A DNA stretch of 64,000 nt from Alphaproteobacteria bacterium (GTDB taxonomy: Bacteria > Pseudomonadota > Alphaproteobacteria > RF32 > CAG-239): positions 4,902 through 68,901 of the forward strand of contig JAZRCM010000011.1 of assembly GCA_045659785.1 (NCBI GenBank). Reading direction: 5' to 3'. A program made the position numbers and the translations under genes. Under the pieces are notes generated by a model. That model saw nothing but the letters and a program-made list of their open reading frames with translations. It ran no database searches and had not been told where the DNA came from. This document shows positions 5,345 to 21,726 of the stretch, piece by piece (position 1 is the first letter of the stretch; the number at the start of each line of letters is the position of its first letter).

Positions 5345-5355
5345 GGAGATGGCGG

Positions 5356-5916
5356 TTGTTCAAAAGAAGAAAAAAACAAACACTGTTGACCAGAGCAAAA
5401 TCGTGGTTTTGGCCCTCTATCGGTTGGAGCAAATACAGACAATATTTGGTATTACGACTGAGCCGATTGGGGAGTACGCCGTATTCTATTGCGGCCGGAG
5501 TTGCCTGCGGGGTTGCAATATCTTTTACTCCGTTTGTCGGTTTGCATTTTGTGTTGGCAGCAATTACCGCTTTTTTGTGTCGCGGAAATATTTTAGCTTC
5601 TGCCGTTGGAACGGCAATGGGAAATCCGTGGACTTTTCCGATTATTTGGGTATCGGTATATTATACCGGAAAATGGTTTTTGGGTATCGGAGTTGATAAG
5701 CATGTTTCGTTTATGCAAACTTTTGAAAAAGGAATGCATGCTTTGATGAGTTTTGATTTTTCAAATTTTGTAACCGATGTTTGGCCGGTTATATATCCGA
5801 TGATGGTAGGTTGCATACCCTATTACATCGTTTCATGGTTGTTAAGCTATTATATTGTTTGGCATGCCTTAAATCATATAAGCAGAAAAAAGAAACAAAA
5901 AAGGAATGTAATATGA
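5356..5916 (+). CDS. DUF2062-family membrane protein
   Basis: 186 aa, multiple TM helices, conserved GNPWTFP motif. Confidence 0.55.
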   Translation: MFKRRKKQTLLTRAKSWFWPSIGWSKYRQYLVLRLSRLGSTPYSIAAGVACGVAISFTPFVGLHFVLAAITAFLCRGNILASAVGTAMGNPWTFPIIWVSVYYTGKWFLGIGVDKHVSFMQTFEKGMHALMSFDFSNFVTDVWPVIYPMMVGCIPYYIVSWLLSYYIVWHALNHISRKKKQKRNVI

Positions 5917-6299
5917 TAATCGGGCTTGGAAATGACATATGCAATATTACGCGAATTGAACAAAGTTATAAAAAATTCGGTCAGCATTTTATCAAACGTT
6001 GTTTTGGTAAAAACGAGCAAGCAGAGTTGCAACAGCTTGCAGATGAAAAGAAATTTTGTGCGTCTTTAGCCAAAAGGTTTGCTGCAAAGGAGGCTTTCAG
6101 TAAGGCTTTAGGAACAGGTTTTAAGAACGGACTTGTTTGGGCGGAGATAGAAATTTTACATAAGAAAGACGGACAACCTTATGTTTGTCTTTCCGAGAAA
6201 ACAGAACAGCTCATAAAAGAAAAAGGAGCTAAAAATATTTTTGTAAGTTTATCCGATGACTATCCTTTTGCACAAGCGGTGGTCATTATTGAGGGTTAG
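5913..6299 (+). CDS. acpS: Holo-[acyl-carrier-protein] synthase
   Basis: MIIGLGNDICNITRIE...FAAKEAFSKALGTG is the AcpS signature. ATG overlaps the upstream stop (atga). Confidence 0.8.
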   Translation: MIIGLGNDICNITRIEQSYKKFGQHFIKRCFGKNEQAELQQLADEKKFCASLAKRFAAKEAFSKALGTGFKNGLVWAEIEILHKKDGQPYVCLSEKTEQLIKEKGAKNIFVSLSDDYPFAQAVVIIEG

Positions 6300-6315
6300 A
6301 TTAAGAGAGGAAACT

Positions 6316-7047
6316 ATGGAAGAAAGAGAAAGTTTTGCCGATACAATTAAGACAGTAGTATTAGCTATCGTTATTGCTGTTTTAATCAGAAGTTTTTTAT
6401 TTGAGCCGTTCAAAATTCCGTCCGGTTCAATGTATCCTAATTTGTATGTCGGGGATTTTTTGTTTGTGTCAAAATATACGTACGGATATTCAAAGCACTC
6501 TTTCCCGTTCAGTATTCCTCTGTTTTCTGGCAGGATTTGGGCAGATGAGCCTAAAGTCGGTGATGTTGTGGTATTTAAATATCCTCAAGATAATCGCACT
6601 GATTTTATCAAAAGAATTGTCGGTGTTCCCGGAGATAAAATCAAATTGGAAAACGGTCGTTTATTTATAAACGGCAAAGAACTTCCGCGTGAAGAAAAAG
6701 AAAATTTCGTCGTTCGCAATAATATGGGATATGCGGAACGTTATCATCAATATGTTGAAACCTTGCCAAATGGTTTGGAACATACAATTTTAGAAATTTC
6801 CGATAACGAAAATGATGATAATTTTGCAGAAGTTACCGTTCCTGAAAATAATTATTTTATGATGGGCGATAATCGTGATCGTTCTGATGACAGTCGTATT
6901 CATGTCGGTTTTGTTCCTTATGAAAACTTGGTAGGAAAAGCTCGTTTCTTGTTCTTTTCTTATGATCCTCATGAAGGAGCTTGGTATAAGCCTTGGACTT
7001 GGGGCAAAAAAATTCGTTGGCGCCGTTTGTTTAATAAAATATCATAA
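6316..7047 (+). CDS. lepB: Signal peptidase I
   Basis: N-terminal TM helix, SGSMYPNL catalytic Ser box, KRIVGVPGD and GDNRDRSDDSR boxes. Start at ATG 6316 after an agagagg RBS. Confidence 0.85.
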   Translation: MEERESFADTIKTVVLAIVIAVLIRSFLFEPFKIPSGSMYPNLYVGDFLFVSKYTYGYSKHSFPFSIPLFSGRIWADEPKVGDVVVFKYPQDNRTDFIKRIVGVPGDKIKLENGRLFINGKELPREEKENFVVRNNMGYAERYHQYVETLPNGLEHTILEISDNENDDNFAEVTVPENNYFMMGDNRDRSDDSRIHVGFVPYENLVGKARFLFFSYDPHEGAWYKPWTWGKKIRWRRLFNKIS

Positions 7048-7061
7048 AAAAGCAGGTAAAT

Positions 7062-7730
7062 ATGGAAGCATTAGAAAACAAACTCGGATATAAGTTTAAT
7101 GATAGGACATTGTTATTCAGGGCTTTAACTCATAGCAGTATTACCGGCAACTTATCTGCAAATTATGAGCGCTTGGAATTTTTAGGCGATAGAGTTTTGG
7201 GGGTGGCTGTTGCGGCAATGCTGTGCCGATTGTTTCCTAATGAGCCGGAAGGAAATTTGTCGCAAAGATTTATGGCCTTGGTTTGTAAAGAAACTGTTTC
7301 GGAAGTTGCTTTAGATTTAGGCTTAGATAAATATATTCGAGCCGAAGGTATAGATGTAAAAAATAATGATAATGTTCTTTGTGATGTCGGAGAAGCAATT
7401 ATCGGTGCCATATATACGGACAGCGGTTGTGTGCAGGCGATAGAGTTTGTTGAAAAACATTGGGGGGCGTTGATTAATACTCATACCAATCCGCCCAAAG
7501 ATGCTAAAACTGCTTTGCAGGAATATGCTCACAGCAAAGGATGGAATACTCCCAAATATACGGAAGTAGGTCGTGAAGGAACTGAACATAATCCTATTTT
7601 TTCAATGAAAGTTGTTGTTAACGGACAGGATGAACAAATCGGAAAAGGACATAATAAAAAACTGGCCGAACAAGATGCAGCTCAAAAGATGTTAAAAGCT
7701 TTAGGAGTAAAAAATGGAACAAAAAAATAA
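7062..7730 (+). CDS. rnc: Ribonuclease III
   Basis: ERLEFLGDRVLG RNase III signature plus C-terminal dsRBD. Confidence 0.9.
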   Translation: MEALENKLGYKFNDRTLLFRALTHSSITGNLSANYERLEFLGDRVLGVAVAAMLCRLFPNEPEGNLSQRFMALVCKETVSEVALDLGLDKYIRAEGIDVKNNDNVLCDVGEAIIGAIYTDSGCVQAIEFVEKHWGALINTHTNPPKDAKTALQEYAHSKGWNTPKYTEVGREGTEHNPIFSMKVVVNGQDEQIGKGHNKKLAEQDAAQKMLKALGVKNGTKK

Positions 7731-8625
7731 TCTTCCGTCTCGATGCGGTTTTGTTACTCTTATCGGAGCTCCTAATGCCGGAAAATCTACGATTACCAAT
7801 GATTTTGTCGGATCTAAAGTGTCGATTGTAAGCCCTAAAGCTCAAACGACCAGAACAATGGTTAAGGGGATAGGTATTTATGAAAATACCCAAATTATTT
7901 TTCAGGATACCCCGGGAATTTTTAAGCCTAAACGTCGGTTAGACAGGTCTATGGTTGCTTCGGCGTGGGGCGGAGCAAAAGACGGCGATATTTTGGTTTT
8001 GGTGGTCGATGCAAAACGCGGATTTGATAATGAAACCAGAACTATAATTGATGAACTTAATAAACAAAACAGAGAAGCAGTTTTGGTCTTAAATAAGGTT
8101 GATATGTTGAGCAAAGAGAAGCTGTTACCTTTATCTGCAGAACTCAATGCTTACGGACATTTTGCGGAAACTTTTATGGTGTCGGCTACTACCGGCGAAA
8201 ATATGGATATTTTTTATAAATATTTAGCAGATAATTTGCCTTTATCTACGTGGTATTATCCGGAAGAACAAATGTCGGATATGCCATTGAAACTGTTGGC
8301 AGCAGAGGTTGTTAGAGAAAAACTGTTTTTAATGTTGCAACAAGAAATTCCATATTCTTTAACTGTTGAACCGGAATTGTGGCAAAGACGTGATGATAAT
8401 TCTGTTCGTGCGGAAATGACTATTTATGTGGAAAGAGAAGGACAGAAGAAGATTATTGTCGGACAGGGCGGAACGATGATTAAAAAGATAGGTGAAAAGG
8501 CTCGTCACGAATTAGAGAATATGCTTGATTGCCGTATTCACTTGTTTTTGTTTGTGAAAGTTCGTGAAAATTGGGTGAATGATCCTGCCAGATATAGCGA
8601 TTGGGGATTGAATTATAACGCTTAA
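7714..8625 (+). CDS. era: GTPase Era
   Basis: GAPNAGKST P-loop, DTPG, NKVD motifs and C-terminal KH domain. Overlaps the rnc 3' end. Confidence 0.9.
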   Translation: MEQKNNLPSRCGFVTLIGAPNAGKSTITNDFVGSKVSIVSPKAQTTRTMVKGIGIYENTQIIFQDTPGIFKPKRRLDRSMVASAWGGAKDGDILVLVVDAKRGFDNETRTIIDELNKQNREAVLVLNKVDMLSKEKLLPLSAELNAYGHFAETFMVSATTGENMDIFYKYLADNLPLSTWYYPEEQMSDMPLKLLAAEVVREKLFLMLQQEIPYSLTVEPELWQRRDDNSVRAEMTIYVEREGQKKIIVGQGGTMIKKIGEKARHELENMLDCRIHLFLFVKVRENWVNDPARYSDWGLNYNA

Positions 8626-9230: not shown

Positions 9231-9392
9231 AGTTTTCCTTTTTTAGAAAAAAATTGCCAAAAATTTAAAAATACGCTTGCTTTTTGGTGCATTTTTGTAT
9301 ATAGTACATTCATTCAAACAATTTTTATCACTATAATATTTCCAAAAGTTTAACAGTCTGTGAAGGTGCAGACAAAATTAAATCAAAATCTT

Positions 9393-9947
9393 ATGAAAAG
9401 GTTTATGTTGATGATGTGCGCGATGCTCTCTGTAGTAGTTGCGTCTGCGCAGGGTGTTGATCTCTCAAAGTGGAGATTCCACGTTGCTCCAACTGTTTAC
9501 GGCGGTTATAACTGCCTTGAAAGTACCCCTGTTGCGGGTATTGCTATCCCTGTCTATGCAGGTTTGATTCGTGCCGAGGCTGAACTCAGCTACAATATGC
9601 ACGATACCTCGCTCGGACACTACAATTACTTTACCTACGGTCACTACTTCGGTATGCAGTACGGTAATGACAAGATAAAAGGATATGCGCTGATAGGTGC
9701 AACCACATGGCCTTGCATAACGAGAGTCGGAGCTCCTTATTATCAGGGAGATGAAGACTACTTTAGTGTTTGCGACATTCAGGGAAAGATTAAGTGCGGC
9801 GTTGATGTAACCCTGTACAAAAAGCTTTTCCTCAATGCAGAACTCGGTTATGTGCTGGTTTCTGACGGCGGTCAGTACTATGAAACTTTCAATCAGCTCG
9901 CGATACGCATAGGTATCGGTTGGCGGTTTGGTTTCAAACACGCATAA
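9393..9947 (+). CDS. Small outer-membrane beta-barrel protein, paralog 1 (Bacteroidetes-style signal peptide ending ASAQ)
   Basis: Signal peptide MKRFMLMMCAMLSVVVASAQ. Alternating amphipathic strands. C-terminal IGIGWRFGFKHA aromatic terminus. G+C is visibly higher than in neighbouring genes. The ORF track extends to 9360; the internal Met is chosen as start. Confidence 0.55.
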   Translation: MKRFMLMMCAMLSVVVASAQGVDLSKWRFHVAPTVYGGYNCLESTPVAGIAIPVYAGLIRAEAELSYNMHDTSLGHYNYFTYGHYFGMQYGNDKIKGYALIGATTWPCITRVGAPYYQGDEDYFSVCDIQGKIKCGVDVTLYKKLFLNAELGYVLVSDGGQYYETFNQLAIRIGIGWRFGFKHA

Positions 9948-10083: not shown

Positions 10084-10629
10084 ATGAAAAAGTTTTTTGT
10101 ACTTTTCGTGATGATGTTTTCGGTGATTGCATCATCATCTGCACAGTCAAAGTGGATTGAGGATTCAGATTGGAAGTTGCACGTTGCTCCTACCGTTTAT
10201 GGCGGATACAACTGCTTGGAGAATGCTCCGATTGCCGGAGTGGCCGTTCCTATCTATGTCAACTTTATCCGTGCCGAGCTTGACTTTGGGTATACTTATC
10301 TCAACACATACCTCGGTCACAAGGATTTTATGACATTCTCACCATCTATTGGTGTGCAGTATGGCAACAAGGTTCGTGGATATGCGATGTACGGATGGAC
10401 AACTTGGGCAAATATTACCAAGGTAGGAGCTCCGAACAGTAAATGTCCTACGGACCGTTTCTACTCTGACCTTTTCCACCACAAGATTAAGGGCGGTGTA
10501 GAGGTTATCCTGACGAAGAAGCTTTTCCTCAATGCGGAGGTTGGCTATGTCTTCTCTAGGGAGAGTAGTACCTACTATGAGAATTTCAGCAACTTGTCAC
10601 TCCGTGCGGGTCTAGGTTGGAGATTCTAA
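10084..10629 (+). CDS. Small outer-membrane beta-barrel protein, paralog 2
   Basis: Signal peptide MKKFFVLFVMMFSVIASSSAQ. Shares WxxHVAPTVYGGYNCLE, FIRAE, KKLFLNAE[LV]GYV and GWRF blocks with paralog 1. Confidence 0.55.
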   Translation: MKKFFVLFVMMFSVIASSSAQSKWIEDSDWKLHVAPTVYGGYNCLENAPIAGVAVPIYVNFIRAELDFGYTYLNTYLGHKDFMTFSPSIGVQYGNKVRGYAMYGWTTWANITKVGAPNSKCPTDRFYSDLFHHKIKGGVEVILTKKLFLNAEVGYVFSRESSTYYENFSNLSLRAGLGWRF

Positions 10630-10721: not shown

Positions 10722-10808
10722 TGGTGCTCTGGAAAGGACTTGGACCTTCACGGGAAAACTCCCATAAGTACCTGAAACTTACGTGTCTACCAATTCCACC
10801 ACCAGAGC
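10722..10808 (-). tRNA. tRNA-Leu (anticodon CAG), class II with long variable arm
   Basis: The reverse complement reads GCTCTGG-TG-GTG-GAATTGGTAGA-CAC-G-TAAGT-TTCAGGT-ACTTA-variable arm-GAAGG-TCCAAGT-CCTTT-CCAGAGC-ACCA. 7 bp acceptor stem, 3 bp D stem, anticodon loop TTCAGGT, encoded CCA. T-loop reads TCCAAGT (C at position 55 is unusual). A terminator hairpin (ctccctttcgggag plus T run) follows on the minus strand at about 10696-10718. Confidence 0.8.
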
Positions 10809-10948
10809 GATGACTTACAATTAATAAGAATTTTTTGTTGTTTAGTCAATAATAAAATTTAAAATGTCTTTTTTTTGTAACATAAAAATTGTTGAAAATA
10901 CGTTATCATAATTGGTATTATGTAAAGAAGATGATAATGGAGGGGAAA

Positions 10949-11932
10949 ATGTGTAAGTACATCAGAATAGTTGCGCTTTTATCTATGATGGCATTTGCTT
11001 CAAATACTTATGCCTCTGTTATCGAATCTTCAAAATATTCTAAAAATGAAACTTCTGAGGTATGGCAGGAAGTCAGCACCAATATATCAGAACTCAATGC
11101 ATTGATGCACCACTGCTCAAATCCGATAGAGGAAAACGGAGTTTATAAAGTTGCGGTTGACTTGAGTGCTGTCGGTGTAAGCTCAAAAGATGTTCAAGTA
11201 AAGGTGATTAAAGGTGGAACGATTGATACCTTGGTTGTGTTAGTTTTACAACGTAGAGATGACGGTGTTAATGTTATGTCTAGCTCAATATCTCTCTCAA
11301 AACCGGTTAACGAAAAAGGTATAGAAACAAAATTTGATGATGACGATAATTTGATAATTACAATCCCTATAAAATATAGTGCGCAGCTTATTGATGATGA
11401 AAAAGATATTAAAGTTTTGCCTGAACTCCGTGCAGCACAAGAAAAAATGCAACAGCTTCTCAATGTCGGAGTTGTATGGGACACAAGAGGATATGTTCGA
11501 GGGGAACCGATTGATGCGACTATGGCGCAAATTGATGTAAACGGTGTTTCATATACCAGAAGCAGTGATGCTTATGACTATAATATCATTATAAATTCGA
11601 TGAAAGATATTGTTATTTATGATTCTATGTCGAATCAAAAAGTTATTACTCCTAAAACTGATGATAAAATGTTTAAGACTTATCTTATCGGGACAGATAA
11701 GGAACTTTCACAGTATTATCAAGCCGGAATGAGAGAAATAAACGGCGAAAAATGTCGAGTATACAAAAGCGATATAGAAGGAGGAGAACTCTGTATCAGT
11801 GAAGATTGGGGTATTCCTATTTATCGTAAAAATACATTTTGGAAGTATGAACAAACAATCAGCAATATCGGTGTTGGCGGTATAAAAATGGGATGGTTTG
11901 ATATTCCGCAAGATGCGATAAACGGCAGATAA
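10949..11932 (+). CDS. Secreted hypothetical protein
   Basis: Start at the ATG preceded by a ggagggg RBS. Signal peptide MCKYIRIVALLSMMAFASNTYA. No recognisable domain. AT-rich like the host. Confidence 0.5.
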   Translation: MCKYIRIVALLSMMAFASNTYASVIESSKYSKNETSEVWQEVSTNISELNALMHHCSNPIEENGVYKVAVDLSAVGVSSKDVQVKVIKGGTIDTLVVLVLQRRDDGVNVMSSSISLSKPVNEKGIETKFDDDDNLIITIPIKYSAQLIDDEKDIKVLPELRAAQEKMQQLLNVGVVWDTRGYVRGEPIDATMAQIDVNGVSYTRSSDAYDYNIIINSMKDIVIYDSMSNQKVITPKTDDKMFKTYLIGTDKELSQYYQAGMREINGEKCRVYKSDIEGGELCISEDWGIPIYRKNTFWKYEQTISNIGVGGIKMGWFDIPQDAINGR

Positions 11933-12001
11933 AAACCTTTACTTTTATATAAAAATCGTATATAAGATAATTTATCAGAAACACTATTAATCTTATATAT
12001 T

Positions 12002-12517
12002 ATGGAATTTACATTAACCCAACTGGAGCAATCCGGTTTGAGAGTTTTGCTTGAAGTCAAAGGCTCTCATAAGTTTGGCAGAAAGGTTGCTGATTTTATT
12101 CAGGACATTTATCTGCAGCAAGTTACTTTCTTTGACGTTCCGGTCAATTATGACGGAGTAAATGCTGTATCGGTCGCCCAAATTGATCCGCAAACCTTAA
12201 GGATGGTAATGTGGAAGTATTTTAAGAGTGTGCGTTCCGAGAGCAAGTATGTTCCGGACGAGGCCCTCTTGAGAAAAATTGAAAAGCTTTTTGCTTTTCG
12301 TGATAGCTGTGACAATCACCTTGAGTATTATCGTGAAAATAAGCGAGGCTCATGGTATTCTAATTGGCGTAAGCGCAGAATTATCAATAGGTATTTGCGT
12401 AGAGCGGATATGGAGTTGACTGTGCAGGATCTGTGGTCGGTGCTGATTGCTTTCTATGTTCGTAGCGGTTTCGGAACCGTTGAGGATTTTAAGGAAGCCG
12501 TTCATCATCTGAACTAG
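12002..12517 (+). CDS. Hypothetical protein (paralog A of a two-member family), higher G+C
   Basis: 171 aa. Shares a C-terminal HLE[YF]Y...R/K-rich...hydrophobic block with the next gene. Confidence 0.45.
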   Translation: MEFTLTQLEQSGLRVLLEVKGSHKFGRKVADFIQDIYLQQVTFFDVPVNYDGVNAVSVAQIDPQTLRMVMWKYFKSVRSESKYVPDEALLRKIEKLFAFRDSCDNHLEYYRENKRGSWYSNWRKRRIINRYLRRADMELTVQDLWSVLIAFYVRSGFGTVEDFKEAVHHLN

Positions 12518-12628
12518 TTTTTCATTAAAAATTTTATGGCGAGGAATAATAATTCTTCGCCATTTTTTTATTTGACAATTTTTGTCTATAATGCTAAATT
12601 GTTTTCATAGACTAAATTTTTATGGCTT

Positions 12629-13093
12629 ATGATATACGATAAAATTTGTTGCTTCCATGATGTTGCAAACATTATGAGCATTGAAAACAGACAGCAATTT
12701 CTTGCCAATTTGATGAACTTTTTTTATGAATCTTTAGACCAACTGAATATGATGGATTGTGATGTCCACACAGCTGATCAGAAAGATTTTGAATTCAAAT
12801 TGTTTTTGCAGATGGTTCCGCTCAATTACAATGTGCCGAACCTCCGCAAGTTGCAAGATGATGTAAAGATGGATGAGATTTATGATCGTCATCTCGAGTT
12901 CTACAAGGCAAATATCTTCAACCGATTTAAGTATCGTGAGATTATTCGCCACCTTGAGTATCGTAAACTGAGAATGAACAGAGTTTTGAGTATCAGCGAG
13001 GTTTTTGAACTTGCCGCTTCTCACTACTTCCAGCAAAACTGGGGAGATGCTCAGACACTCAAGAGAGATTTGGAGATACTTACTATCAAGTAA
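12629..13093 (+). CDS. Hypothetical protein (paralog B)
   Basis: 154 aa. DRHLEFYKANIFNRFKYREIIRHLEYRKLRMNR block is similar to paralog A. Preceded by its own promoter-like region and followed by a terminator. Confidence 0.45.
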   Translation: MIYDKICCFHDVANIMSIENRQQFLANLMNFFYESLDQLNMMDCDVHTADQKDFEFKLFLQMVPLNYNVPNLRKLQDDVKMDEIYDRHLEFYKANIFNRFKYREIIRHLEYRKLRMNRVLSISEVFELAASHYFQQNWGDAQTLKRDLEILTIK

Positions 13094-13111: not shown

Positions 13112-13150
13112 TAAAGGAGAAAGCTTTATGCTTTCTCCTTTGTTTTTTTT
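13112..13150. terminator. Bidirectional terminator hairpin (aaggagaaagc...gctttctcctt + T run)
   Basis: 11 bp stem between convergent genes. Confidence 0.5.
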
Positions 13151-14621
13151 AGCTAATATTAACAATTCCTCGTGAAAAGGCATATATAGCCCATAAGGCA
13201 ATTACAATCAACAAACAAGCGAGAGCCGCTTCTCCTACCGTAAATGCTTTTTCGTTAGGGGAAGATTGTTTGCGAGCCCATACGAAAACCGGTATTCCGG
13301 CAGCCATAAATATTACGGCCATCAACAGATAGTTCAATCCTGCTGCATAAATAAGCCACAAAGCATAAATTGAACCGATAATTCCGGAGATTAGTGCAAC
13401 CGAGCGTTTGATATAAATGCCCACCGGATATTCTCCATCTTCACATATTTTCCATAAATAAGCACAGCTTGAAAAATATGCCGGTAAAACCATTACACCG
13501 GTAATACTTAACATTGTGTTCCAGGCGTTATTTGAAAAATATACCAATAAAATAAACAACTGCATCATAATACTTGTAATCCATAATGATGTAGATGGAG
13601 CGCCATATTTGTTTTCGGTTGCAAATTGTTTTGGGAAGGTTCCGTTAGATGCGGCGGCTTGCGGAATTTGAGCCGTAATCATAGTCCAAGCCAACCAACT
13701 GGTTAATACCGAAATCAACAATCCGATATTCATTAACCATGCTCCCCATTTGCCGACAACTTTTTCTAAGATTCCGGCAGTTGAGGGATTGGCAACATCC
13801 GCTAATTCAGCTTGTGACATAAAGCCGTAAGGTAAAACCGAAAGCAAAATATAGATACCCAAACAGCCTAAAAATCCCAATAATGTTGCTCTTCCCACTG
13901 TTTTTGGGCTTTTTGCGTGCTGTGATAAAACAACGGCTCCTTCTATACCGATAAATGCCCACAAGGTTACAAGCATCGTACTTTTAATTTGTGTACTTAA
14001 ACCTCCTAAATGTTTGCTGTTTTCTCCCCAGAAATCAAATTCAAATTTATCGAGATGAAAAACAAACATTGAGATTATGATAAACAAAATTAACGGAACG
14101 ATTTTAGCGATTGTTCCGATGGTATTAATCAGAGTTGCTTGTTTTAAGCCGCGCAAAACCAAAAAATTAAATCCCCAAATCAGGATTGAACCGCCGATAA
14201 TCGATGCAAGATTGTTTCCTCCGGCAAAATATGGCGGAAAGAAATAATTTAGTGCATCCATTGTAATAACTGCATATCCGACATTTCCGCATATTTGACA
14301 CAGCCAATATGACCACCCGATAGTAAAACCGACATAAGGGCCGAAACCTTCTCTGCTATACATGTAGATTCCGGCTGTTAAATCCGGTTTTGCCGCAGAT
14401 AAAATGCGAAATGTGTTAGCGATAAAATATACTCCGAAACCGGTGATTGCCCAAGATAAAATTACGGCACCGACAGATGCTCCGGCAGCCATATTTTGCG
14501 GTAAGGAGTATATTCCTCCGCCAATCATTGAACTCACAACAATAGCGGCAAGGGCTAAAACACCTAATCCTCCGCTGTTTGCTGATTTATTATTTAAATT
14601 TGTTTTATTGTTATCAGTCAT
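13149..14621 (-). CDS. APC-superfamily basic amino acid/amine antiporter (AaxC/ArcD-like arginine:agmatine exchanger)
   Basis: About 490 aa, 12-13 TM helices, GGGIYSLPQNMA and FGPYVGFTIGWSYW motifs of the APA/ArcD-type antiporters. Start set at the ATG with a gagga RBS; the ORF track's 14669 start is a TTG. Confidence 0.75.
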   Translation of the reverse strand: MTDNNKTNLNNKSANSGGLGVLALAAIVVSSMIGGGIYSLPQNMAAGASVGAVILSWAITGFGVYFIANTFRILSAAKPDLTAGIYMYSREGFGPYVGFTIGWSYWLCQICGNVGYAVITMDALNYFFPPYFAGGNNLASIIGGSILIWGFNFLVLRGLKQATLINTIGTIAKIVPLILFIIISMFVFHLDKFEFDFWGENSKHLGGLSTQIKSTMLVTLWAFIGIEGAVVLSQHAKSPKTVGRATLLGFLGCLGIYILLSVLPYGFMSQAELADVANPSTAGILEKVVGKWGAWLMNIGLLISVLTSWLAWTMITAQIPQAAASNGTFPKQFATENKYGAPSTSLWITSIMMQLFILLVYFSNNAWNTMLSITGVMVLPAYFSSCAYLWKICEDGEYPVGIYIKRSVALISGIIGSIYALWLIYAAGLNYLLMAVIFMAAGIPVFVWARKQSSPNEKAFTVGEAALACLLIVIALWAIYAFSRGIVNIS

Positions 14622-14751
14622 CTTATAATCCTCATAAAATGATGTTGCTAACGAAAGGAGGCGAAGCAACCTTTACAGATTGTTCCGCCTCTCGTTCGGC
14701 ATTGGTTTCTCAAAATTTTTGAAAATATCAAAAACTGCTATCGAAACCAAT

Positions 14752-15336
14752 TTATGCTACCGTTACAGGGGCTGCATGCTCAAAGTTTAGGAAACCTAAA
14801 CAGGTTAAGCAGTAACCGAATTGTTGGGTTATATTTATATAATTATGGAAGAGCTGGAATTCTGAGTGTTTTGTAACACCTCTGATTTCAAGCTCGTGAT
14901 TCAACGATTTGTTGAGCCACATTTCACAATGCGTGCGAGCAATATCGTCATCGATGAAAGTATCAAAATATTCGACATATTCTGCTGCCCATCCTCCGAT
15001 AAGTTCGCCTTTTGCATCTCTTCCCCAACAAATTCCTACACCGGTGGCAATAGCTTTATGTTCGTCACGGCTTGCACCGTTTCCGGCCATAATAACTTCT
15101 AAAACCGCACCATGTTTGAAATGGTTGACAACTTTGTCAACAGGTACAATGTTGCCATATAATTCTTTCGGCAAAACCGATGTGTACGGAACAATATTAA
15201 AGTTTTCGATTTTTGCTTGTAAAAGAGCCGAGTCATAACAGAAGGTTTCAAACGGCTGTGGGGGAATGCCAACATCAGACTGTCCTGCACCACCGGTTTG
15301 AAAAGCTAAAGTAGGATAACGAACACCTTCGGTCAT
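14752..15336 (-). CDS. pdaD: Pyruvoyl-dependent arginine decarboxylase (PdaD/AaxB family)
   Basis: About 194 aa from the ATG with a perfect aaggag RBS. NIVPYT|SVLPKE matches the Thr/Ser-Ser self-cleavage site that generates the pyruvoyl group in PdaD/AaxB. Size matches this family, not the pyruvoyl histidine decarboxylases (about 310 aa). Confidence 0.7.
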
Positions 15337-15495
15337 ATTTTTTCTCCTTATTAAATTTTTTTTTGAATACAAACAAAAATTAATTACGGATAGTAAAATT
15401 TCAACCGAACCTATACTAATTGCATAGTCATATCTTTTTATTTTCTAAATAGTGAATATATAAGTTTTGTTTGAAATAACTTTAGGGGAATTGAA

Positions 15496-16704
15496 ATGAA
15501 TAAAACTTTAGGATTTTTATTGTTATCCGGTTTGATGGTGTTTTCATCTTCCGTATATGCAGGAGCAAATAAAGGGGCTGTCAAACGAGGAGAAGCTGCA
15601 CAAGAAAGACATAATTGGAGTTTTAGTGAGTTTGGTAATGACTATGCCGAATTTAAAAATAAGCTGAATAAAGATTATGGTTTTAATTATGCGGTAGATG
15701 TTTCTTTTATGCCACAAAGAGGTGCTCCTAACGGAGACAAAACCGCATGGCAAACTATGATTTATCCGAGTTTCAGTTGGACTACATTTAATAATGAATA
15801 CGGAACCGGAACATTGAATTTTGCGTATAATATTGTTCGTTATGGTGGTTCTTCCGCTTCTCGAATCGGTAATAATATCGGTGTAGTCAGCGGAATTAAT
15901 GATTATGCAACAAAATCAAATTCTTTTGATGAACTTTATTATACTTATCAATTTGGAGGTAAAGCAGATTGGCTTACTTTAGCACTGGGTCAATTTCCGA
16001 TTTATAATTTTGACGGAACAGATTATGACTCAAATCAACAGGTTAATTTTATAAATTTTGCCTTATCACAAAATGCCAGCTCAACTTATCCGACTGCAGG
16101 TGTAGGAACTTATGTTCAAATTACACCTAATGATGAGTGGAGTTTTGTATTAGGTGGACAAGATGCAAGTAATGTTGAAGCTATAAGTGTTCGAGTTAAT
16201 GATTTGAAAGATAAACATTTTACAAGTTTTGCTTATGCTTCATATACACCGACGATAAAAAAATTAGGACAAAGCGAAATTTCGGTTTTGTTATACAATC
16301 AACCCGGAGTTAAAGAGCAACCGGAAACAACAAACGGTTGGTCGTTGAATATAAGTCAAAATATCGGTGAGAAGTTTGCTATCTTTGGTAGAGTAAACGG
16401 TGTTTCGGGCAATACTGCCGAAATAAATCAGTCATGGGTGTTAGGCGGAGTTTATAACAATCCGCTAAACCGAAATCCGCTTGACCAAATCGGGCTAGCT
16501 TTTGCGTATAATAAAGTTGATGAAAAAGCAGTCGGAAGCAACTTATCAAGTTCAGCAGAAAAAGTTATCGAAGCTTATTGGGCATGGGGAATTTCAAAAT
16601 GGGCAACGATAACACCGGATATTCAATTTTATATTGATCCCGCTCAAAACTCAAAATCCGATTACGGAACAGTATTGTCGCTTCGTGCAACATTATTTTT
16701 CTGA
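15496..16704 (+). CDS. Outer-membrane porin, OprB/AaxA-like
   Basis: Signal peptide MNKTLGFLLLSGLMVFSSSVYA. About 380-aa mature beta-barrel with alternating-hydrophobic strands. C-terminal ...LRATLFF aromatic terminus. Divergently transcribed from the decarboxylase-antiporter pair. Confidence 0.6.
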   Translation: MNKTLGFLLLSGLMVFSSSVYAGANKGAVKRGEAAQERHNWSFSEFGNDYAEFKNKLNKDYGFNYAVDVSFMPQRGAPNGDKTAWQTMIYPSFSWTTFNNEYGTGTLNFAYNIVRYGGSSASRIGNNIGVVSGINDYATKSNSFDELYYTYQFGGKADWLTLALGQFPIYNFDGTDYDSNQQVNFINFALSQNASSTYPTAGVGTYVQITPNDEWSFVLGGQDASNVEAISVRVNDLKDKHFTSFAYASYTPTIKKLGQSEISVLLYNQPGVKEQPETTNGWSLNISQNIGEKFAIFGRVNGVSGNTAEINQSWVLGGVYNNPLNRNPLDQIGLAFAYNKVDEKAVGSNLSSSAEKVIEAYWAWGISKWATITPDIQFYIDPAQNSKSDYGTVLSLRATLFF

Positions 16705-16726
16705 TATAGATGTAGAGGTTGTCGCA

Positions 16727-17854
16727 CTAGACTCTGTTTCTGGTGCGACGACGGGTATCTACTGAAGCTAACATCGGAGACTGTTTTACAATATTATGAT
16801 TTTTTCTGTTTTTATCAGTAAAATCATCAATAAAAATTTCTCTCATTTGTGCATTTTCTTCCGCTTTTGCTAGCAACATAGGGCTGATTTCATGGGGGGT
16901 AACTTCTTGAATAGGGGCTTGAATATCCATACCTGCCGATAAATAGTCTTTAATTTGACGAGCTTGTTCAATCGGTAAAATGGTATCTATATTTTCCCAA
17001 TCACCATTAATTAAATTTTCTCTTTCCAAATTTTGCATAATAGCTTTTTTGGTTAATTTTTTCATATGAATAACGATTGCGGTCGAATTTTTTAGCTCTC
17101 TAATACCGTCAATGTTAAAATTTAAGCAATAATGTTTTCCGTTAGTTTTTCCCAAATATTGACGGGCATGTCGGTCACCGTTACTGTTTCTGACCGTAAG
17201 TATAATATCTCCAGGCTCAAGATTGTTATAATTTATACGACCTGATTCCATGCAGTCTTTATATCCTTTTTGTCGTAAATATTCGGCAAAAGCATTGCAG
17301 CCGTTAGCATAACGACATTCTGAACTGTTAGGATCGGGTAAGACGTGAGATAAATCTCCGCCATAAGAATTTGCATCAATCAACGCTCGGTTTAATGCGG
17401 TAATACAATATGGGGTAGTTCCGGGAAGACCACGAACGGGAGAAACAACATCAAAAAAGTTTTCTTTTACATATTTTGTTTTGTTTCCGCAACTTTGGAG
17501 TGCTTCCAAATGATATTTTGCCGACTCTAAAAATTTTGAAATGAACCAATCAGCCCTTCTTTCTACTTCGGCATTTATGTTGAAAACAACCTTTCTTTCA
17601 TAGGCCAACAAATCGTCAGAAGGTTGGTCAAGCATTATGTTATGAGCTAACATTTCGGTATTATCTGGAATGTAATCAGATTGAACAGGATTGGGTGTTT
17701 GTGCCTGAACGTTAGAAATATTAAGAGCCACAGATGCAACGGTAGGCAGCAAAATCTTGCTTCCGGCTTTGATTATTCCATAGCGTTTAACGTAATATTT
17801 TAATTTATTGAGACGCACGAGGGCGGCTGTTTTCTGATTTTTTTTGTTCATCAT
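16727..17854 (-). CDS. Hypothetical protein (possible Cys/His hydrolase)
   Basis: 375 aa with an N-terminal hydrophobic segment. Conserved-looking Cys (TPYCITALNRAL) and His (GDRHARQY) residues. No confident family assignment. Confidence 0.45.
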   Translation of the reverse strand: MMNKKNQKTAALVRLNKLKYYVKRYGIIKAGSKILLPTVASVALNISNVQAQTPNPVQSDYIPDNTEMLAHNIMLDQPSDDLLAYERKVVFNINAEVERRADWFISKFLESAKYHLEALQSCGNKTKYVKENFFDVVSPVRGLPGTTPYCITALNRALIDANSYGGDLSHVLPDPNSSECRYANGCNAFAEYLRQKGYKDCMESGRINYNNLEPGDIILTVRNSNGDRHARQYLGKTNGKHYCLNFNIDGIRELKNSTAIVIHMKKLTKKAIMQNLERENLINGDWENIDTILPIEQARQIKDYLSAGMDIQAPIQEVTPHEISPMLLAKAEENAQMREIFIDDFTDKNRKNHNIVKQSPMLASVDTRRRTRNRV

Positions 17855-18007
17855 TCCCCCTAATTCTTACTTACGGGCGAATTATATACCAAAATGATTG
17901 TTATGTCATTAAAAAATTTTGATAAAAAATGCTTTTTTTCTTTACAAATTTTAGTGTTTGGAAGTAAATTGCATTAACAATGGTTTTTATTTTTTTGAAG
18001 ATAAAAG

Positions 18008-18571
18008 ATGAATAATATTTTTACAAAAACTATACTGATTACTCTTGCCACAGTTTTGATGTGTGCGTGCGCAAACAAAGAAGTTCGTCCCGCGATTGTT
18101 CCGGGAGTTGAAATTAAACGAGAAGAACCTAAGAAAGTCGAACCGATTAAGACTAAAACTCATAAACTGGGAGTTATCGGAGCGATTGAACCGATATATT
18201 TCTTGCCCATGAAAACCCCGTTTAATGCCCGAATTGATACCGGAGCAGAAACATCTGCCGTTGATGTTGAAAATTTAGAATATTTTGAAAGAGACGGGGA
18301 AAAGTGGGTTTCTTTTGATTTGATAAACAGATTAAATAATGAAACACATCATTTTGAAAAGAAAATATATCGCAATCAAAAAGTAAAACGTTCAGAAGGC
18401 AGGGAAGAAAGGTTAGTGGTTTTGATGCAGGTAAAGTTCGGCGGAGAAATTATTAATGCTCAATTCAGCCTTTCGGACAGAGATAAATTCAAATATCAAG
18501 GTTTGGTCGGACGCAACATAATTACCGGTCGAGCGATTGTAGATACAGCAATAAGTAATACACTAAAATAG
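18008..18571 (+). CDS. Retropepsin-like aspartyl peptidase lipoprotein (the family mis-named 'ATP-dependent Zn protease', RimK-associated)
   Basis: Lipoprotein signal ...VLMCACANKE. IDTGAETSAVD D-T/S-G active-site motif. Second half-barrel with GRNIITGRAIVD. Confidence 0.65.
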   Translation: MNNIFTKTILITLATVLMCACANKEVRPAIVPGVEIKREEPKKVEPIKTKTHKLGVIGAIEPIYFLPMKTPFNARIDTGAETSAVDVENLEYFERDGEKWVSFDLINRLNNETHHFEKKIYRNQKVKRSEGREERLVVLMQVKFGGEIINAQFSLSDRDKFKYQGLVGRNIITGRAIVDTAISNTLK

Positions 18572-18583
18572 TCAGGAAAACTA

Positions 18584-20116
18584 ATGTTACAAAAACTTAA
18601 ATCAGTTAGAATGTTATTGGGCATCGGGCTTTTTGCTTCGGTGCTTTTTGCCGCATACAGTATTTATTATAAAATCGAATATTGGGGGTTTAGTTGGGCT
18701 CCGAAACAAAAAACAGCGGTATGGACAATAGAAGCTCATGTCGCCTTTAAGCCTACCGGAACACCCATAAAAGTATCAATAGCCAGACCATCGGCTTCTA
18801 AAGGTTTTAAGGTTTTGGATGAAGATGTCGTTGCTCCTAAATATGATATAGATATGCAAGAAGAAAAAGTTATTTTGACTTCTAAACCTCGCAGTAAAAT
18901 GCAAGATGTGTATTATCGTGTTTTGTTGTACGATAATGTAGAGAGCAGAGGCAAAACGCCGGCACCTAAACCGGAAAAAATTGTTAAACCGATATTAGAT
19001 GAGCAGTCTTTGAGTGTCGCTTATCAAATTTTGGAAACAGCAAAGGGTATAGACGGAGATGAGGTTTGTCAGGTTATAAAACTGTTAAATCAAACTCCTC
19101 CCGATGAAACCGTGCGCTCTTTTATGCCGGAACGTCGCAGCGATAAAGAAACAGCTCAGGCAATTGTTGATTTATTGGCATTGAAAAATATTTCGGCTCG
19201 TATGGTCAGAGGTATAAAATTACAAGAAGATAAAAAAACATTTATGCCGGATGTTATGATTGAGGCATATATGGATAATATGTGGAAAATATATAATCTT
19301 CATACCGGAAAAAAAGGTTTACCGAGTGACTTTATCATTTTTCAAAGAGGTAACCGCCCATTGGTTGATGTGGTCGGGGGAGAAGATTCGGTTATAAAAT
19401 ATTCGGTTATGAAATCCTTAAGCACCTCATATAAAATGGCCGGTCATCGTGCAAAGTTGGCAAATCAGGAAGGACGCTTCGGTTATTCTATTTATAATTT
19501 GCCGCTTAACCAACAAAATGCTTTGAAGTGGTTGATGATATTCCCATTAGCTATTTTGGTAGTAGTTTTGATGCGTAATGTCGTCGGTATTTCTACAATG
19601 GGTACATTTACTCCGATGTTGATTGCAATGTCTTTGGTTGAAACAGGTTTTGTTTATGGTTTGGCCTGTTTCACCATTATTATCGGTATCGGAATTTTGA
19701 TAAGAGCTCTTTTATCACGATTAAATTTATTGTTAGTTCCGAGAATTTCAGCGGTGGTAATTTTTGTTATTATCATAATGCAAATTTTAGCGATTATCGG
19801 CTATAATTGGCAGTTACCGATAGCTTCTTCCGCTTTGTTCTTCCCGATTATTATTACCGCATGGATAATTGAGAGAGCTTCAATAACTTGGGAAGAAGAC
19901 GGAGCAAGAAATGCGTTGAGAGAAATTGTAAACAGTGTATTGGCTGCGATTGTAACTTATTTCGTTATTGTAAATGATACAATCCGTCATATCATGTTTG
20001 CATTTAACGAACTGAATTTAGTGATTTTATTTGTTGTAATGTTGCTTGGTACATATACCGGATATCGTATAACCGAATTAACTCGTTTTGCACCTTTAGC
20101 TAAAAAGGAAAAATAA
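18584..20116 (+). CDS. Inactive transglutaminase-like domain fused to a 7TM domain
   Basis: 510 aa. N-terminal TM, periplasmic transglutaminase-like region, C-terminal cluster of about 7 TM helices. Confidence 0.6.
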   Translation: MLQKLKSVRMLLGIGLFASVLFAAYSIYYKIEYWGFSWAPKQKTAVWTIEAHVAFKPTGTPIKVSIARPSASKGFKVLDEDVVAPKYDIDMQEEKVILTSKPRSKMQDVYYRVLLYDNVESRGKTPAPKPEKIVKPILDEQSLSVAYQILETAKGIDGDEVCQVIKLLNQTPPDETVRSFMPERRSDKETAQAIVDLLALKNISARMVRGIKLQEDKKTFMPDVMIEAYMDNMWKIYNLHTGKKGLPSDFIIFQRGNRPLVDVVGGEDSVIKYSVMKSLSTSYKMAGHRAKLANQEGRFGYSIYNLPLNQQNALKWLMIFPLAILVVVLMRNVVGISTMGTFTPMLIAMSLVETGFVYGLACFTIIIGIGILIRALLSRLNLLLVPRISAVVIFVIIIMQILAIIGYNWQLPIASSALFFPIIITAWIIERASITWEEDGARNALREIVNSVLAAIVTYFVIVNDTIRHIMFAFNELNLVILFVVMLLGTYTGYRITELTRFAPLAKKEK

Positions 20117-21075
20117 TGTTCGGATGGTTTAAAAATTTTGCTACTCCTTCGCAACTTAGAGCTGCCGGTGTTTTAGGTATGAATGCTCGCAATTATGATA
20201 TTATTGCCAAGAGTAACAAACGTCGCTTATATCCTTTGGTTGATGATAAGGTACAAACCAAAAAGTTAGCTAATGAAGTTGGGATTAACACTCCTCGTCT
20301 TATCGGAATAGTGGAAGTTCAAAACGAAGTTGATAAATTTTTGGATTTGGTAAAAGACTATAAAGAATTTGTAATTAAACCAGCTCACGGCTCCGGTGGA
20401 AAAGGTGTTTTGGTTATCAAGCAATATGATGCCGAAAACTTTGTTACCGCTTCTGAAAAAGTTTTAACTTATAACGAGGTGTATCAGCATATTTCCAATA
20501 TTTTGAGCGGACTTTACAGTTTAGGCGGCAAATATGACATTGCTTTGATTGAAGAAATGGTGCACTTTTCCAATCAGTTTCAAGATTTCAGTTATCAAGG
20601 TATTCCTGATGTGCGAGTTATTGTATATCAAGGTTTTCCGGCATTGGCAATGATGCGTTTGGCAACAAAAGAATCGGGAGGCAGAGCAAATTTACACCAA
20701 GGTGCGGTAGGCGTAGGAATTGATGTAAAAACCGGATGTGCGATTTCTGCCGTTTCACACAATTTGCCGATAGCAATTCATCCCGATACTAAAGCCGATT
20801 TAATGGAGTTAAAAGTTCCTTTTTGGCGAGAGCATTTAGAGATTGCGGTTAAAGGTTATGAAATGACCGGATTGGGATATTTAGGTGCAGACATCGTTTT
20901 GGATAAATTTAGAGGTCCGATGATGTTGGAGCTTAATGCCCGCCCCGGTCTGGCAATTCAAATTGCTAACAATCGCGGTTTGCGAAATATTTTAGAAGAC
21001 ATAAAAAATAATTATCCCAAAGGCTTAAATCCGCAACAACGTTTGGATTATGTGTTAGGTGTTGCGAAAGACTAA
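20116..21075 (+). CDS. RimK-like ATP-grasp ligase (alpha-L-glutamate ligase-related protein)
   Basis: N-terminal GMNARNYDIIAKSNKR, ATP-grasp core (KPAHGSGGKGVLVI, ELNARPGLAIQ). ATG overlaps the stop of the upstream gene. Confidence 0.7.
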   Translation: MFGWFKNFATPSQLRAAGVLGMNARNYDIIAKSNKRRLYPLVDDKVQTKKLANEVGINTPRLIGIVEVQNEVDKFLDLVKDYKEFVIKPAHGSGGKGVLVIKQYDAENFVTASEKVLTYNEVYQHISNILSGLYSLGGKYDIALIEEMVHFSNQFQDFSYQGIPDVRVIVYQGFPALAMMRLATKESGGRANLHQGAVGVGIDVKTGCAISAVSHNLPIAIHPDTKADLMELKVPFWREHLEIAVKGYEMTGLGYLGADIVLDKFRGPMMLELNARPGLAIQIANNRGLRNILEDIKNNYPKGLNPQQRLDYVLGVAKD

Positions 21076-21120
21076 AACATTACCTATATATAAAGCAGTT
21101 AATTTTTAAGGAGATGAAAT

Positions 21121-21726
21121 ATGGCCGAATTACTGGATGATAAAAAAACAGCTAAATTAGAAAAACCGGATACAAAAGAGTTAGGCGGAGCAGATACCAA
21201 AAAACTCACACAAAGCGAAACCAGAGCCAAAAAAGAAAAGGCAAAATATAATGTTAAAGATGCCGAAAATTCTTTGTTGTTAAAGGTTAAAGATGGAGAT
21301 GTTGTGATTGAAATGTATCCTGATGATGCTCCGAATCATGTTGCACGCATTAAAGAATTAGTCAGAGAAGGTTTTTATAACGGCTTAAAATTTCATCGTG
21401 TTATTGAAGGTTTTATGGCGCAGACAGGTTGTCCTTTAGGAACAGGAACCGGTGGAAGCGGTAAAAAATTGAAAGCTGAATTTAATAAACGTCCGCATTT
21501 GCGTGGTACTGTTTCTATGGCAAGAGCTATGGATCCTAACAGTGGTGACAGTCAATTTTTTATCTGTTTTGCCGATGCTCCGTGGTTGAACGGGCAATAT
21601 ACCGTGTGGGGAGAAGTAACTTCAGGTATGGAATATGTTGATATGATAAAACGCGGTGGTGGTGCAAACGGTATGGTGCATAATCCTGATGAAATTATAT
21701 CAATAGATGTAATTGCCGATTTATAA
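21121..21726 (+). CDS. Cyclophilin-type peptidyl-prolyl cis-trans isomerase with a K/E-rich N-terminal extension
   Basis: FHRVIEGFMAQTG, GDSQFFI, WLNGQYTVWGEV cyclophilin motifs. Confidence 0.8.
   Translation: MAELLDDKKTAKLEKPDTKELGGADTKKLTQSETRAKKEKAKYNVKDAENSLLLKVKDGDVVIEMYPDDAPNHVARIKELVREGFYNGLKFHRVIEGFMAQTGCPLGTGTGGSGKKLKAEFNKRPHLRGTVSMARAMDPNSGDSQFFICFADAPWLNGQYTVWGEVTSGMEYVDMIKRGGGANGMVHNPDEIISIDVIADL

Follow-up and report, generated by a model that had tools for sequence, protein, structure and literature searches.

Counterparts of the chlamydial aaxABC genes in a gut lineage of Alphaproteobacteria, with a structured RNA between aaxB and aaxC

Three neighboring genes (Table 1) in a 64,000-nucleotide stretch of DNA from an alphaproteobacterium (contig JAZRCM010000011.1; the whole stretch is hereafter called the window) are, in our judgment, counterparts of the aaxABC arginine:agmatine exchange system of Chlamydia, an assignment to which sequence comparison leads us to give a probability of about 85%. 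Specifically, the genes encode a predicted pyruvoyl-dependent arginine decarboxylase (PvlArgDC; aaxB), a predicted exchanger of arginine and agmatine (aaxC), and an outer-membrane porin (aaxA) that is transcribed divergently from the other two. An initial annotation of this DNA, made from the letters alone, had described an APC-family antiporter, a decarboxylase of ~194 amino acids and a divergent OprB-like porin at this site, and had proposed an AaxABC-like module in an alphaproteobacterium. All three genes are present as described, and the proposal is borne out by identities of 75% (AaxB), 60% (AaxC) and 37% (AaxA) to the proteins of Chlamydia felis. Homology, conserved catalytic residues, fold, the tight linkage of aaxB to aaxC, and purifying selection are each directly observed, as described below.

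According to a paper that sums up experiments on the chlamydial system (PMC2720952), AaxB obtains its pyruvoyl cofactor by cleaving itself at Ser53, AaxC exchanges arginine for agmatine, and AaxA forms a porin in the outer membrane and stimulates the system. AaxABC is not known to have been studied outside the Chlamydiaceae; the same paper regards the very acidic optimum of AaxB as puzzling for an intracellular bacterium, and holds that the cluster apparently reached the ancestor of the Chlamydiaceae by horizontal transfer from a source given as not known. A literature search turned up no account of aax genes in Alphaproteobacteria. New relative to the available literature are the conservation of aaxABC counterparts in a large uncultured gut lineage of this class, as sisters of the chlamydial genes, a rearranged gene order and, in one subclade, a lineage-specific RNA. 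The known mechanism is left unchanged by these findings, and the gain is incremental.

The decarboxylase and the antiporter

The aaxB product matches the family PF01862 with 87.3 bits (gathering cut-off 22.7) and aligns with C. felis AaxB over its full length with 75% identity and one gap (194 versus 195 amino acids), which places the enzyme in this family and not in another group of pyruvoyl enzymes. The Thr-Ser processing site that the initial annotation had read in the motif NIVPYT/SVLPKE (the slash marks the expected cleavage) corresponds to Thr52-Ser53, the exact self-cleavage position of chlamydial AaxB in the alignment (PMC2720952). Of 91 AaxB sequences, 90 have Ser53 and the remaining one (L090) has an alignment gap at that site. 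Residues D35, N47, Y51, G114, G115, E119 and Y120 are invariant in a 22-sequence alignment of the family as well as in the 91-sequence AaxB alignment, and the window protein also keeps the Gly whose substitution by Arg stops cleavage in C. trachomatis D (PMC2720952). The initially reported aaggag ribosome-binding site for the decarboxylase Met is likewise in place, as AAGGAG at 15349-15344, 7 nucleotides before the ATG.

Structural comparison points in the same direction. A single-sequence phmmer search with AaxB against the PDB gave no match; by way of the family profile, Ser53, Asn47 and Glu119 align with Ser53, Asn47 and Glu109 of PdaD from M. jannaschii. An AlphaFold2 model of AaxB (predicted local distance difference test score 96.6) was matched by Foldseek to two structures of the PdaD proenzyme, 1n2m and 2qqd (E ~1e-12, TM-score 0.77-0.85), and pyruvoyl histidine decarboxylase, the next fold match, followed far behind. 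PdaD (1MT1, 1N2M, 2QQD) thus shares the fold and the Ser53 site with window AaxB, whereas identity between the two is only 16-18% and PdaD is ~30 amino acids shorter, serves biosynthesis and has no coupled antiporter. Window AaxB misses the NCBIfam equivalog cut-offs of NF009064 (31.4 versus 207) and TIGR00286 (30.5 versus 107). Because C. felis AaxB is also without an NCBIfam match at E<=1e-20, these two models describe the archaeal type of enzyme and not AaxB. We therefore predict from the sequence that window AaxB is a pyruvoyl arginine decarboxylase that cleaves itself between Thr52 and Ser53.

The antiporter matches PF13520 (197 bits), PF00324, and TIGR00905 (574.6 bits; cut-off 409), and it is 60% identical to C. 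felis AaxC over 479 amino acids. It does not, then, group with unrelated APC permeases. The two proteins have near-identical NCBIfam profiles, with TIGR00905 scores of 590 for C. felis and 575 for the window, and TIGR03810 scores of 507 and 513, respectively. A tree of AaxC proteins places the window transporter with transporters linked to aaxB. The closest solved structure is that of the arginine/agmatine antiporter AdiC (E 4e-35), a distant homologue, and the score on the AdiC equivalog NF007929 is 163.5 against a cut-off of 574. From these comparisons we infer that window AaxC is an arginine:agmatine antiporter. Its open reading frame (ORF) extends over 13149-14669 on the minus strand. The ATG at 14621, which has a GAGGA Shine-Dalgarno sequence at 14633-14629, 7 nucleotides upstream, is the likely start; a TTG at 14669 was rejected, since neither the frame nor that start is conserved in relatives.

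Relatives were sought with a 10-sequence alignment as the query, which yielded at least 546 decarboxylase relatives among species-representative genomes, not all of them classified. The best 80 of these 546 (L001-L080; decarboxylase identity >=83%) were taken as loci, with flanks fetched up to 6 kb on each side. An aaxB-like gene is directly followed by an aaxC-like gene in every one of the 80, with identities of 73-99% across these species genomes. Comparison with relatives gives dN/dS ratios of 0.007-0.07 (aaxB), 0.02-0.06 (aaxC) and 0.03-0.18 (aaxA); most synonymous sites are saturated. Values of this kind indicate that all three are working genes under strong constraint.

In the protein database, decarboxylase homologues form 682 clusters at 90% identity. 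The initial description of the family as mostly archaeal does not hold, as many bacterial PF01862 homologues exist. Some bacterial PvlArgDC homologues of 34-50% identity carry signal-peptide-like or long N-terminal extensions (<=479 amino acids; P0133, P0134, P0135, P0140, P0158 and P0164 in alignment A1, and P0137, P0138 and P0143), which hints at pyruvoyl arginine decarboxylases that are exported or fused.

The porin and the alternatives to arginine:agmatine exchange

The porin has an N-terminal Sec-type signal peptide, judged by inspection (MNKTLGFLLLSGLMVFSSSVYA, followed by G). It matches the OprB carbohydrate-selective porin family PF04966 with 74.9 bits, a score far exceeded by its sole NCBIfam match, NF051888 'porin AaxA' (295.9 bits, E 5.6e-88, model positions 84-438 of 440). 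Identity to C. felis AaxA is 37% over 361 amino acids (E 4e-73). No solved structure is detectable for it by sequence, and a search returned 913 homologues, for which the NCBI name is merely 'carbohydrate porin'. Judged by these scores, the window porin is a diverged AaxA homologue that falls outside the chlamydial equivalog.

Several findings weigh against assigning the three genes to arginine:agmatine exchange. The porin stays below the equivalog cut-off of NF051888 (296 versus 600), on which C. felis AaxA scores 804, and it is transcribed divergently from aaxBC, toward rloA and rloB. In two metagenomic relatives (L091, 3533-8602; L092, 5001-10069), a 62-64%-identical porin heads an rloA-rloB-ATP-grasp-peptidyl-prolyl isomerase (PPIase) block, and aaxBC is not nearby. 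As for the other two genes, HMM scores alone cannot split AaxC from ArcD-type arginine:ornithine exchangers, and the 64 kb of the window, the extent covered by this search, hold no gene for an agmatine-using enzyme.

The findings on the porin bear on an alternative in which this protein stands outside the arginine system, either serving the rloA-rloB-ATP-grasp cluster in envelope function or osmotic stress or acting as a general porin, with its place beside aaxBC an accident or relic of rearrangement. We take this possibility seriously, at somewhat less than even odds. In L091 and L092 the porin gene immediately precedes, in the same orientation, genes for a RimB-like peptidase, a seven-transmembrane (7TM) transglutaminase, an ATP-grasp protein and a PPIase. 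Moreover, the DNA fetched around aaxBC in L022-L080 holds no porin gene, and the homologues' names refer only to carbohydrates. The alternative has to contend, however, with a far better score on the chlamydial AaxA model than on generic OprB, with a porin tree that mirrors those of AaxB and AaxC, with the colinear order aaxA-aaxB-aaxC in Chlamydia and in the nearest outgroup (L089), and with adjacency of the porin to aaxBC in ~20 genomes and in those metagenome fragments that extend far enough. Participation of the porin is the less certain part, and the weakest link, of the proposed arginine system.

In Chlamydia the porin gene is the first of a colinear operon, whereas it is divergent in the window and unlinked in the two metagenomic relatives. 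Adjacent and divergent porin genes occur only in the ~20 genomes closest to the window (L001-L021), followed, as in the window, by a variable hypothetical gene and rloA-rloB-ATP-grasp-PPIase. The lineage therefore has two blocks, aaxBC and porin-rlo, which are neighbors only in the subclade of the window. The kinship of the porin to AaxA, part of the initial view, stands, but the porin does not share an operon with aaxBC as it does in Chlamydia.

In the window, the order over 15496-21726 is porin, hypothetical gene, rloA, rloB, ATP-grasp (RimK-like) and PPIase, where rloA encodes a retropepsin-like peptidase, rloB a 7TM inactive transglutaminase, and the last gene a cyclophilin. The porin directly precedes the rlo block across the lineage, also in members without aaxBC at that site. 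Rlo proteins have been tied to osmotic-stress tolerance in P. aeruginosa (PMC12239564), and a functional link between porin and Rlo is possible. The hypothetical gene between porin and rloA (16727-17854, minus strand) encodes 375 amino acids without a family match, is 30-85% identical among relatives, and is absent in L017 and L021.

The ambiguity of the transporter scores raises a second alternative, that aaxBC act on another pair of compounds such as arginine:ornithine, ornithine:putrescine or histidine:histamine. On the models for arginine-ornithine and histidine-histamine exchange the window transporter scores 513 and 448 bits, near the values for chlamydial AaxC, and aaxC-type antiporters stand beside histidine decarboxylases in other gut bacteria (PMC8465708). 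ArcD-type proteins (TIGR03810) and the aaxC-type antiporters that accompany decarboxylases for histidine or arginine in Bacteroidota and Firmicutes of the gut share with the window both the TIGR00905 subfamily and the pairing of a decarboxylase with an exchanger (PMC8465708). All of these equivalog scores nevertheless remain under their cut-offs (591 for the ArcD equivalog TIGR03810), no arc or hdc genes adjoin aaxBC, and neither arcABC nor hdcA is nearby. The partner enzyme, in addition, is 75% identical to a characterized arginine decarboxylase family, and its guanidinium-binding Asp35 and Glu119 are invariant. Exchange of a different pair therefore appears highly improbable.

An arginine decarboxylase could also be mainly biosynthetic, supplying agmatine for polyamines, with the permease a plain arginine importer. 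Archaeal PdaD has a biosynthetic role, as do many bacterial members of PF01862, and a 54%-identical relative (P0126) lies in a polyamine cluster with an agmatine deiminase and a PotABCD-like transporter. We consider this unlikely for the genes of the window: in 80 of 80 genomes the decarboxylase and an APC transporter of exchanger type form one operon, the transporter is 60% identical to a member of a family of experimentally shown arginine:agmatine antiporters (PMC2720952), and neither agmatinase nor agmatine deiminase genes adjoin aaxBC in the window or in L061.

Distribution and evolutionary history

The reference for Chlamydiaceae was the C. felis Fe/C-56 locus AP006861.1, in which OprB, PvlArgDC and permease genes are colinear as aaxA-aaxB-aaxC. 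It was reached through P0297 (CF0286 at NCBI), a protein named pyruvoyl-dependent arginine decarboxylase in UniRef, which was retrieved with an approximate AaxB sequence used as bait only; all comparisons use AP006861.1. Neighbor-joining trees with bootstrap were made for AaxA, AaxB and AaxC, the AaxB tree being rooted with the next-nearest decarboxylase homologues, which have 45-57% identity, lack both porin and antiporter, and were used as outgroups only.

The three trees contain the same bipartition, with alphaproteobacterial metagenome-assembled genomes (MAGs) and L089 on one side and Chlamydiaceae, L083 and L088 on the other. Bootstrap values for the MAG split are 100 (AaxC), 100 (AaxA) and 67 (AaxB). 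Given these congruent trees, together with the colinear clusters in other loci, the three genes traveled and evolved as a unit. The closest outgroup of the MAG clade is L089 (AaxB 79%, AaxC 66% and AaxA 41-45% identity), a 938-kb contig of 37% GC with an ankyrin-repeat neighbor and colinear aaxABC at 4687-8065. On the chlamydial side, L088 is of low GC and carries colinear aaxABC at 4406-8069 among neighbors without Pfam matches. L083 and L084 (protein P0315, labeled 'Victivallaceae bacterium' at NCBI) have exactly the synteny of Chlamydiaceae, aroA/K/C/B/DE - aaxABC - DAO - hypothetical gene - mdh - pgi; this contig is probably chlamydial and the Victivallaceae label doubtful.

Identities of 75% and 60% between Alphaproteobacteria and Chlamydiae mean that a transfer between phyla happened at some point, and imply that it was ancient. 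In the rooted AaxB tree the chlamydial and alphaproteobacterial groups are sisters, neither nested in the other, and such reciprocal monophyly in neighbor-joining trees would fit a transfer in either direction. The search for a donor by phylogeny that the initial annotation had recommended thus yields a sister clade of the chlamydial genes. A more speculative reading, which we regard as less likely than not, is that the MAG lineage and L089 are sister to the aaxABC cluster that Chlamydiaceae acquired, perhaps its donor pool, and that in these free-living bacteria the genes form a core pathway that conserves pH and energy and that, in one subclade, is controlled by the RNA between aaxB and aaxC.

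The initial annotation had also placed the module between a foreign-looking island and core genes, and had suggested horizontal acquisition. That suggestion holds for the ancient cross-phylum event and fails for a recent one. What might be taken for an island is a run of variable hypothetical genes with a tRNA-Leu next to aaxC (10722-13093), and the location of aaxBC differs among subclades. A recently acquired island at 13.1-16.7 kb was nonetheless rejected, and we consider it most improbable. The aaxBC genes are adjacent to each other in 80 of 80 genomes, mostly among core genes, and therefore bear no sign of recent acquisition; in L061, for example, the order is lptF/G-lptD-surA-ksgA, aaxB, aaxC, pyruvate kinase, and the ORF layout of L034 is similar. 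The trees follow subclades, and between relatives synonymous sites are saturated while the proteins are conserved. GC content is 0.36-0.39 at the aax genes, equal to that of the flanks. No direct (att-like) repeats were found beside the tRNA-Leu, and the flanking hypothetical genes gave no PHROG or Pfam match and include no integrase. On this comparison, aaxBC are old genes kept vertically in the alphaproteobacterial lineage.

A structured RNA between aaxB and aaxC

In the window, 130 nucleotides separate aaxB from aaxC, whereas the gap in Chlamydia is ~10 nucleotides. This spacer folds as two long hairpins with a minimum free energy of -51.5 kcal/mol (z -7.3), in an RNA of ~105 nucleotides whose first base is the last of the aaxB stop codon. 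A consensus across 15 relatives has 39 base pairs, 15 of which have compensatory double changes, and 99.5% of the cells in this comparison are paired. None of 500 shuffles reaches the observed values, and controls slid along the sequence pair in only 35-59% of cells. Helix 1 covaries heavily, and helix 2 (GAGGCGRAACAATC...TTGCTTCGCCTCCTTTCG) is near-invariant in sequence. G-U pairs fit the mRNA strand only; on it the covariance model gives 76-119 bits, versus <=38 on the opposite strand. The covariation and the strand-specific G-U pairs together argue that the spacer is conserved for its RNA structure and not for coding. In keeping with this, a coding explanation was rejected, as neither the TTG noted above nor a 9-codon mini-ORF (MPNERRNNL) is conserved in frame or start.

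The RNA has no match in Rfam, at either gathering or E<=10 thresholds. Its covariance model finds it only at the aaxB-aaxC position, in the window and in 18 related loci. Elsewhere the fetched DNA, 1 Mb in all, gave no match, and neither did Chlamydia, L088 or L089. When metagenomes were scanned with the core of helix 2, the RNA adjoined aaxB in 25 of 25 contigs, and it lay between aaxB and aaxC where both are on the fragment. A repeat element was rejected as an explanation, given that the core occurs once in the window and at this position only in the loci and metagenomes.

No U-tract follows the complete helix 2, and thus the RNA does not qualify as a canonical terminator. It could plausibly serve as an intercistronic stabilizer or processing site that sets the ratio of AaxB to AaxC, or as a regulator of aaxC translation. 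Regardless of the precise role, the RNA is a small new cis-element and a candidate regulator.

Proposed function and biological setting

By homology, the cycle would begin with self-cleavage of AaxB between Thr52 and Ser53, creating the pyruvoyl cofactor. External L-arginine would pass the outer membrane, probably by way of the AaxA-like porin, and the AaxC-like antiporter would bring it into the cell in exchange for agmatine, which the AaxB-like enzyme would form by decarboxylating arginine in the cytoplasm. Each turn would consume one cytoplasmic proton and export one extra positive charge. The cycle would in this way raise internal pH and add to the membrane potential, favoring acid survival, energy conservation, or both in the gut or rumen. 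We infer the substrate, the exchange stoichiometry, the physiological role and the participation of the porin; acid resistance and energy conservation are both candidate roles.

The three components and the position of the cleavage site are those of the Chlamydiaceae (CPn1033-1031 in C. pneumoniae; C. felis compared here), where aaxB is likewise followed by aaxC. In its predicted logic the system also resembles AdiA/AdiC of E. coli (AR3), in which arginine enters, decarboxylation consumes a proton, and agmatine leaves. AdiA, in contrast, is a large pyridoxal phosphate enzyme unrelated to pyruvoyl AaxB, and the window transporter is not the equivalog of AdiC.

The host differs from Chlamydia in being a free-living gut alphaproteobacterium rather than an obligate intracellular pathogen. 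A cycle serving acid survival or energy conservation would make ecological sense for an organism that passes the stomach or abomasum and lives in acidic, peptide-rich digesta. AaxB and AaxC proteins of 60-75% identity in a gut lineage would thus give the system a natural setting of gastric or rumen acid and arginine-rich digesta. That lineage is at the same time a candidate sister or donor of the chlamydial aax genes. With aaxBC in at least 80 species-level genomes, it would amount to a widespread and so far unrecognized set of gut bacteria that may produce agmatine.

The locus and its surroundings

The features of the locus are collected in Table 1. A hairpin directly past the aaxC stop codon is likely to form the 3' end of the aaxBC transcript. 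In the intergenic region between aaxB and aaxA, alignment reveals the conserved blocks TTTAGTATA, CTTGAAA and ATTAC, and a promoter scan of this region gave nothing above chance.

Table 1. Features of the aax locus, in window coordinates.
Feature	Position	Strand	Basis
aaxC 3' hairpin (terminator-like, bidirectional)	13112-13142	.	12-13 bp stem, T-runs on either side
aaxC-like basic amino acid/polyamine antiporter, 490 amino acids	13149-14621	-	PF13520, TIGR00905
Two-hairpin RNA, aaxB-aaxC intercistronic	14646-14752	-	fold and covariation
aaxB-like pyruvoyl-dependent arginine decarboxylase proenzyme, 194 amino acids	14752-15336	-	PF01862
aaxB Shine-Dalgarno AAGGAG, 7 nucleotides 5' of ATG 15336	15344-15349	-	invariant in alignment of relatives
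aaxB/aaxA divergent intergenic region, candidate promoters/operator	15337-15495	.	conserved blocks
aaxA-like OprB-family outer-membrane porin, 402 amino acids, signal peptide	15496-16704	+	PF04966, NF051888

GC content is ~37% across the window, which carries gcrA, the gene of an alphaproteobacterial cell-cycle regulator, at 698-1234. Upstream of the aax genes lie rpoZ, spoT, lepB, rnc and era, with further core genes downstream. Almost all of the nearest genomes are MAGs labeled 'Alphaproteobacteria bacterium', 'Azospirillum sp.' or 'Rhodospirillales', from human gut, rumen, or the intestine of deer, yak or sheep; two deer MAGs, whose decarboxylase is 99% identical, come closest. The host is an alphaproteobacterium of this gut/rumen MAG lineage of ~37% GC.

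Among the surrounding genes, tandem paralogues for small outer-membrane beta-barrels (9360-9947 and 10084-10629, plus strand; 49% identity) adjoin the tRNA-Leu(CAG) at 10722-10808 (minus strand). The three hypothetical genes at 10889-13093 vary among relatives, and two of them show weak paralogy (21% identity, E 2e-4). Beyond the rlo block, the segment 21876-29164 encodes a 952-amino-acid autotransporter and, after it, an adaptor of the HlyD type and a resistance-nodulation-division pump of the AcrB type.

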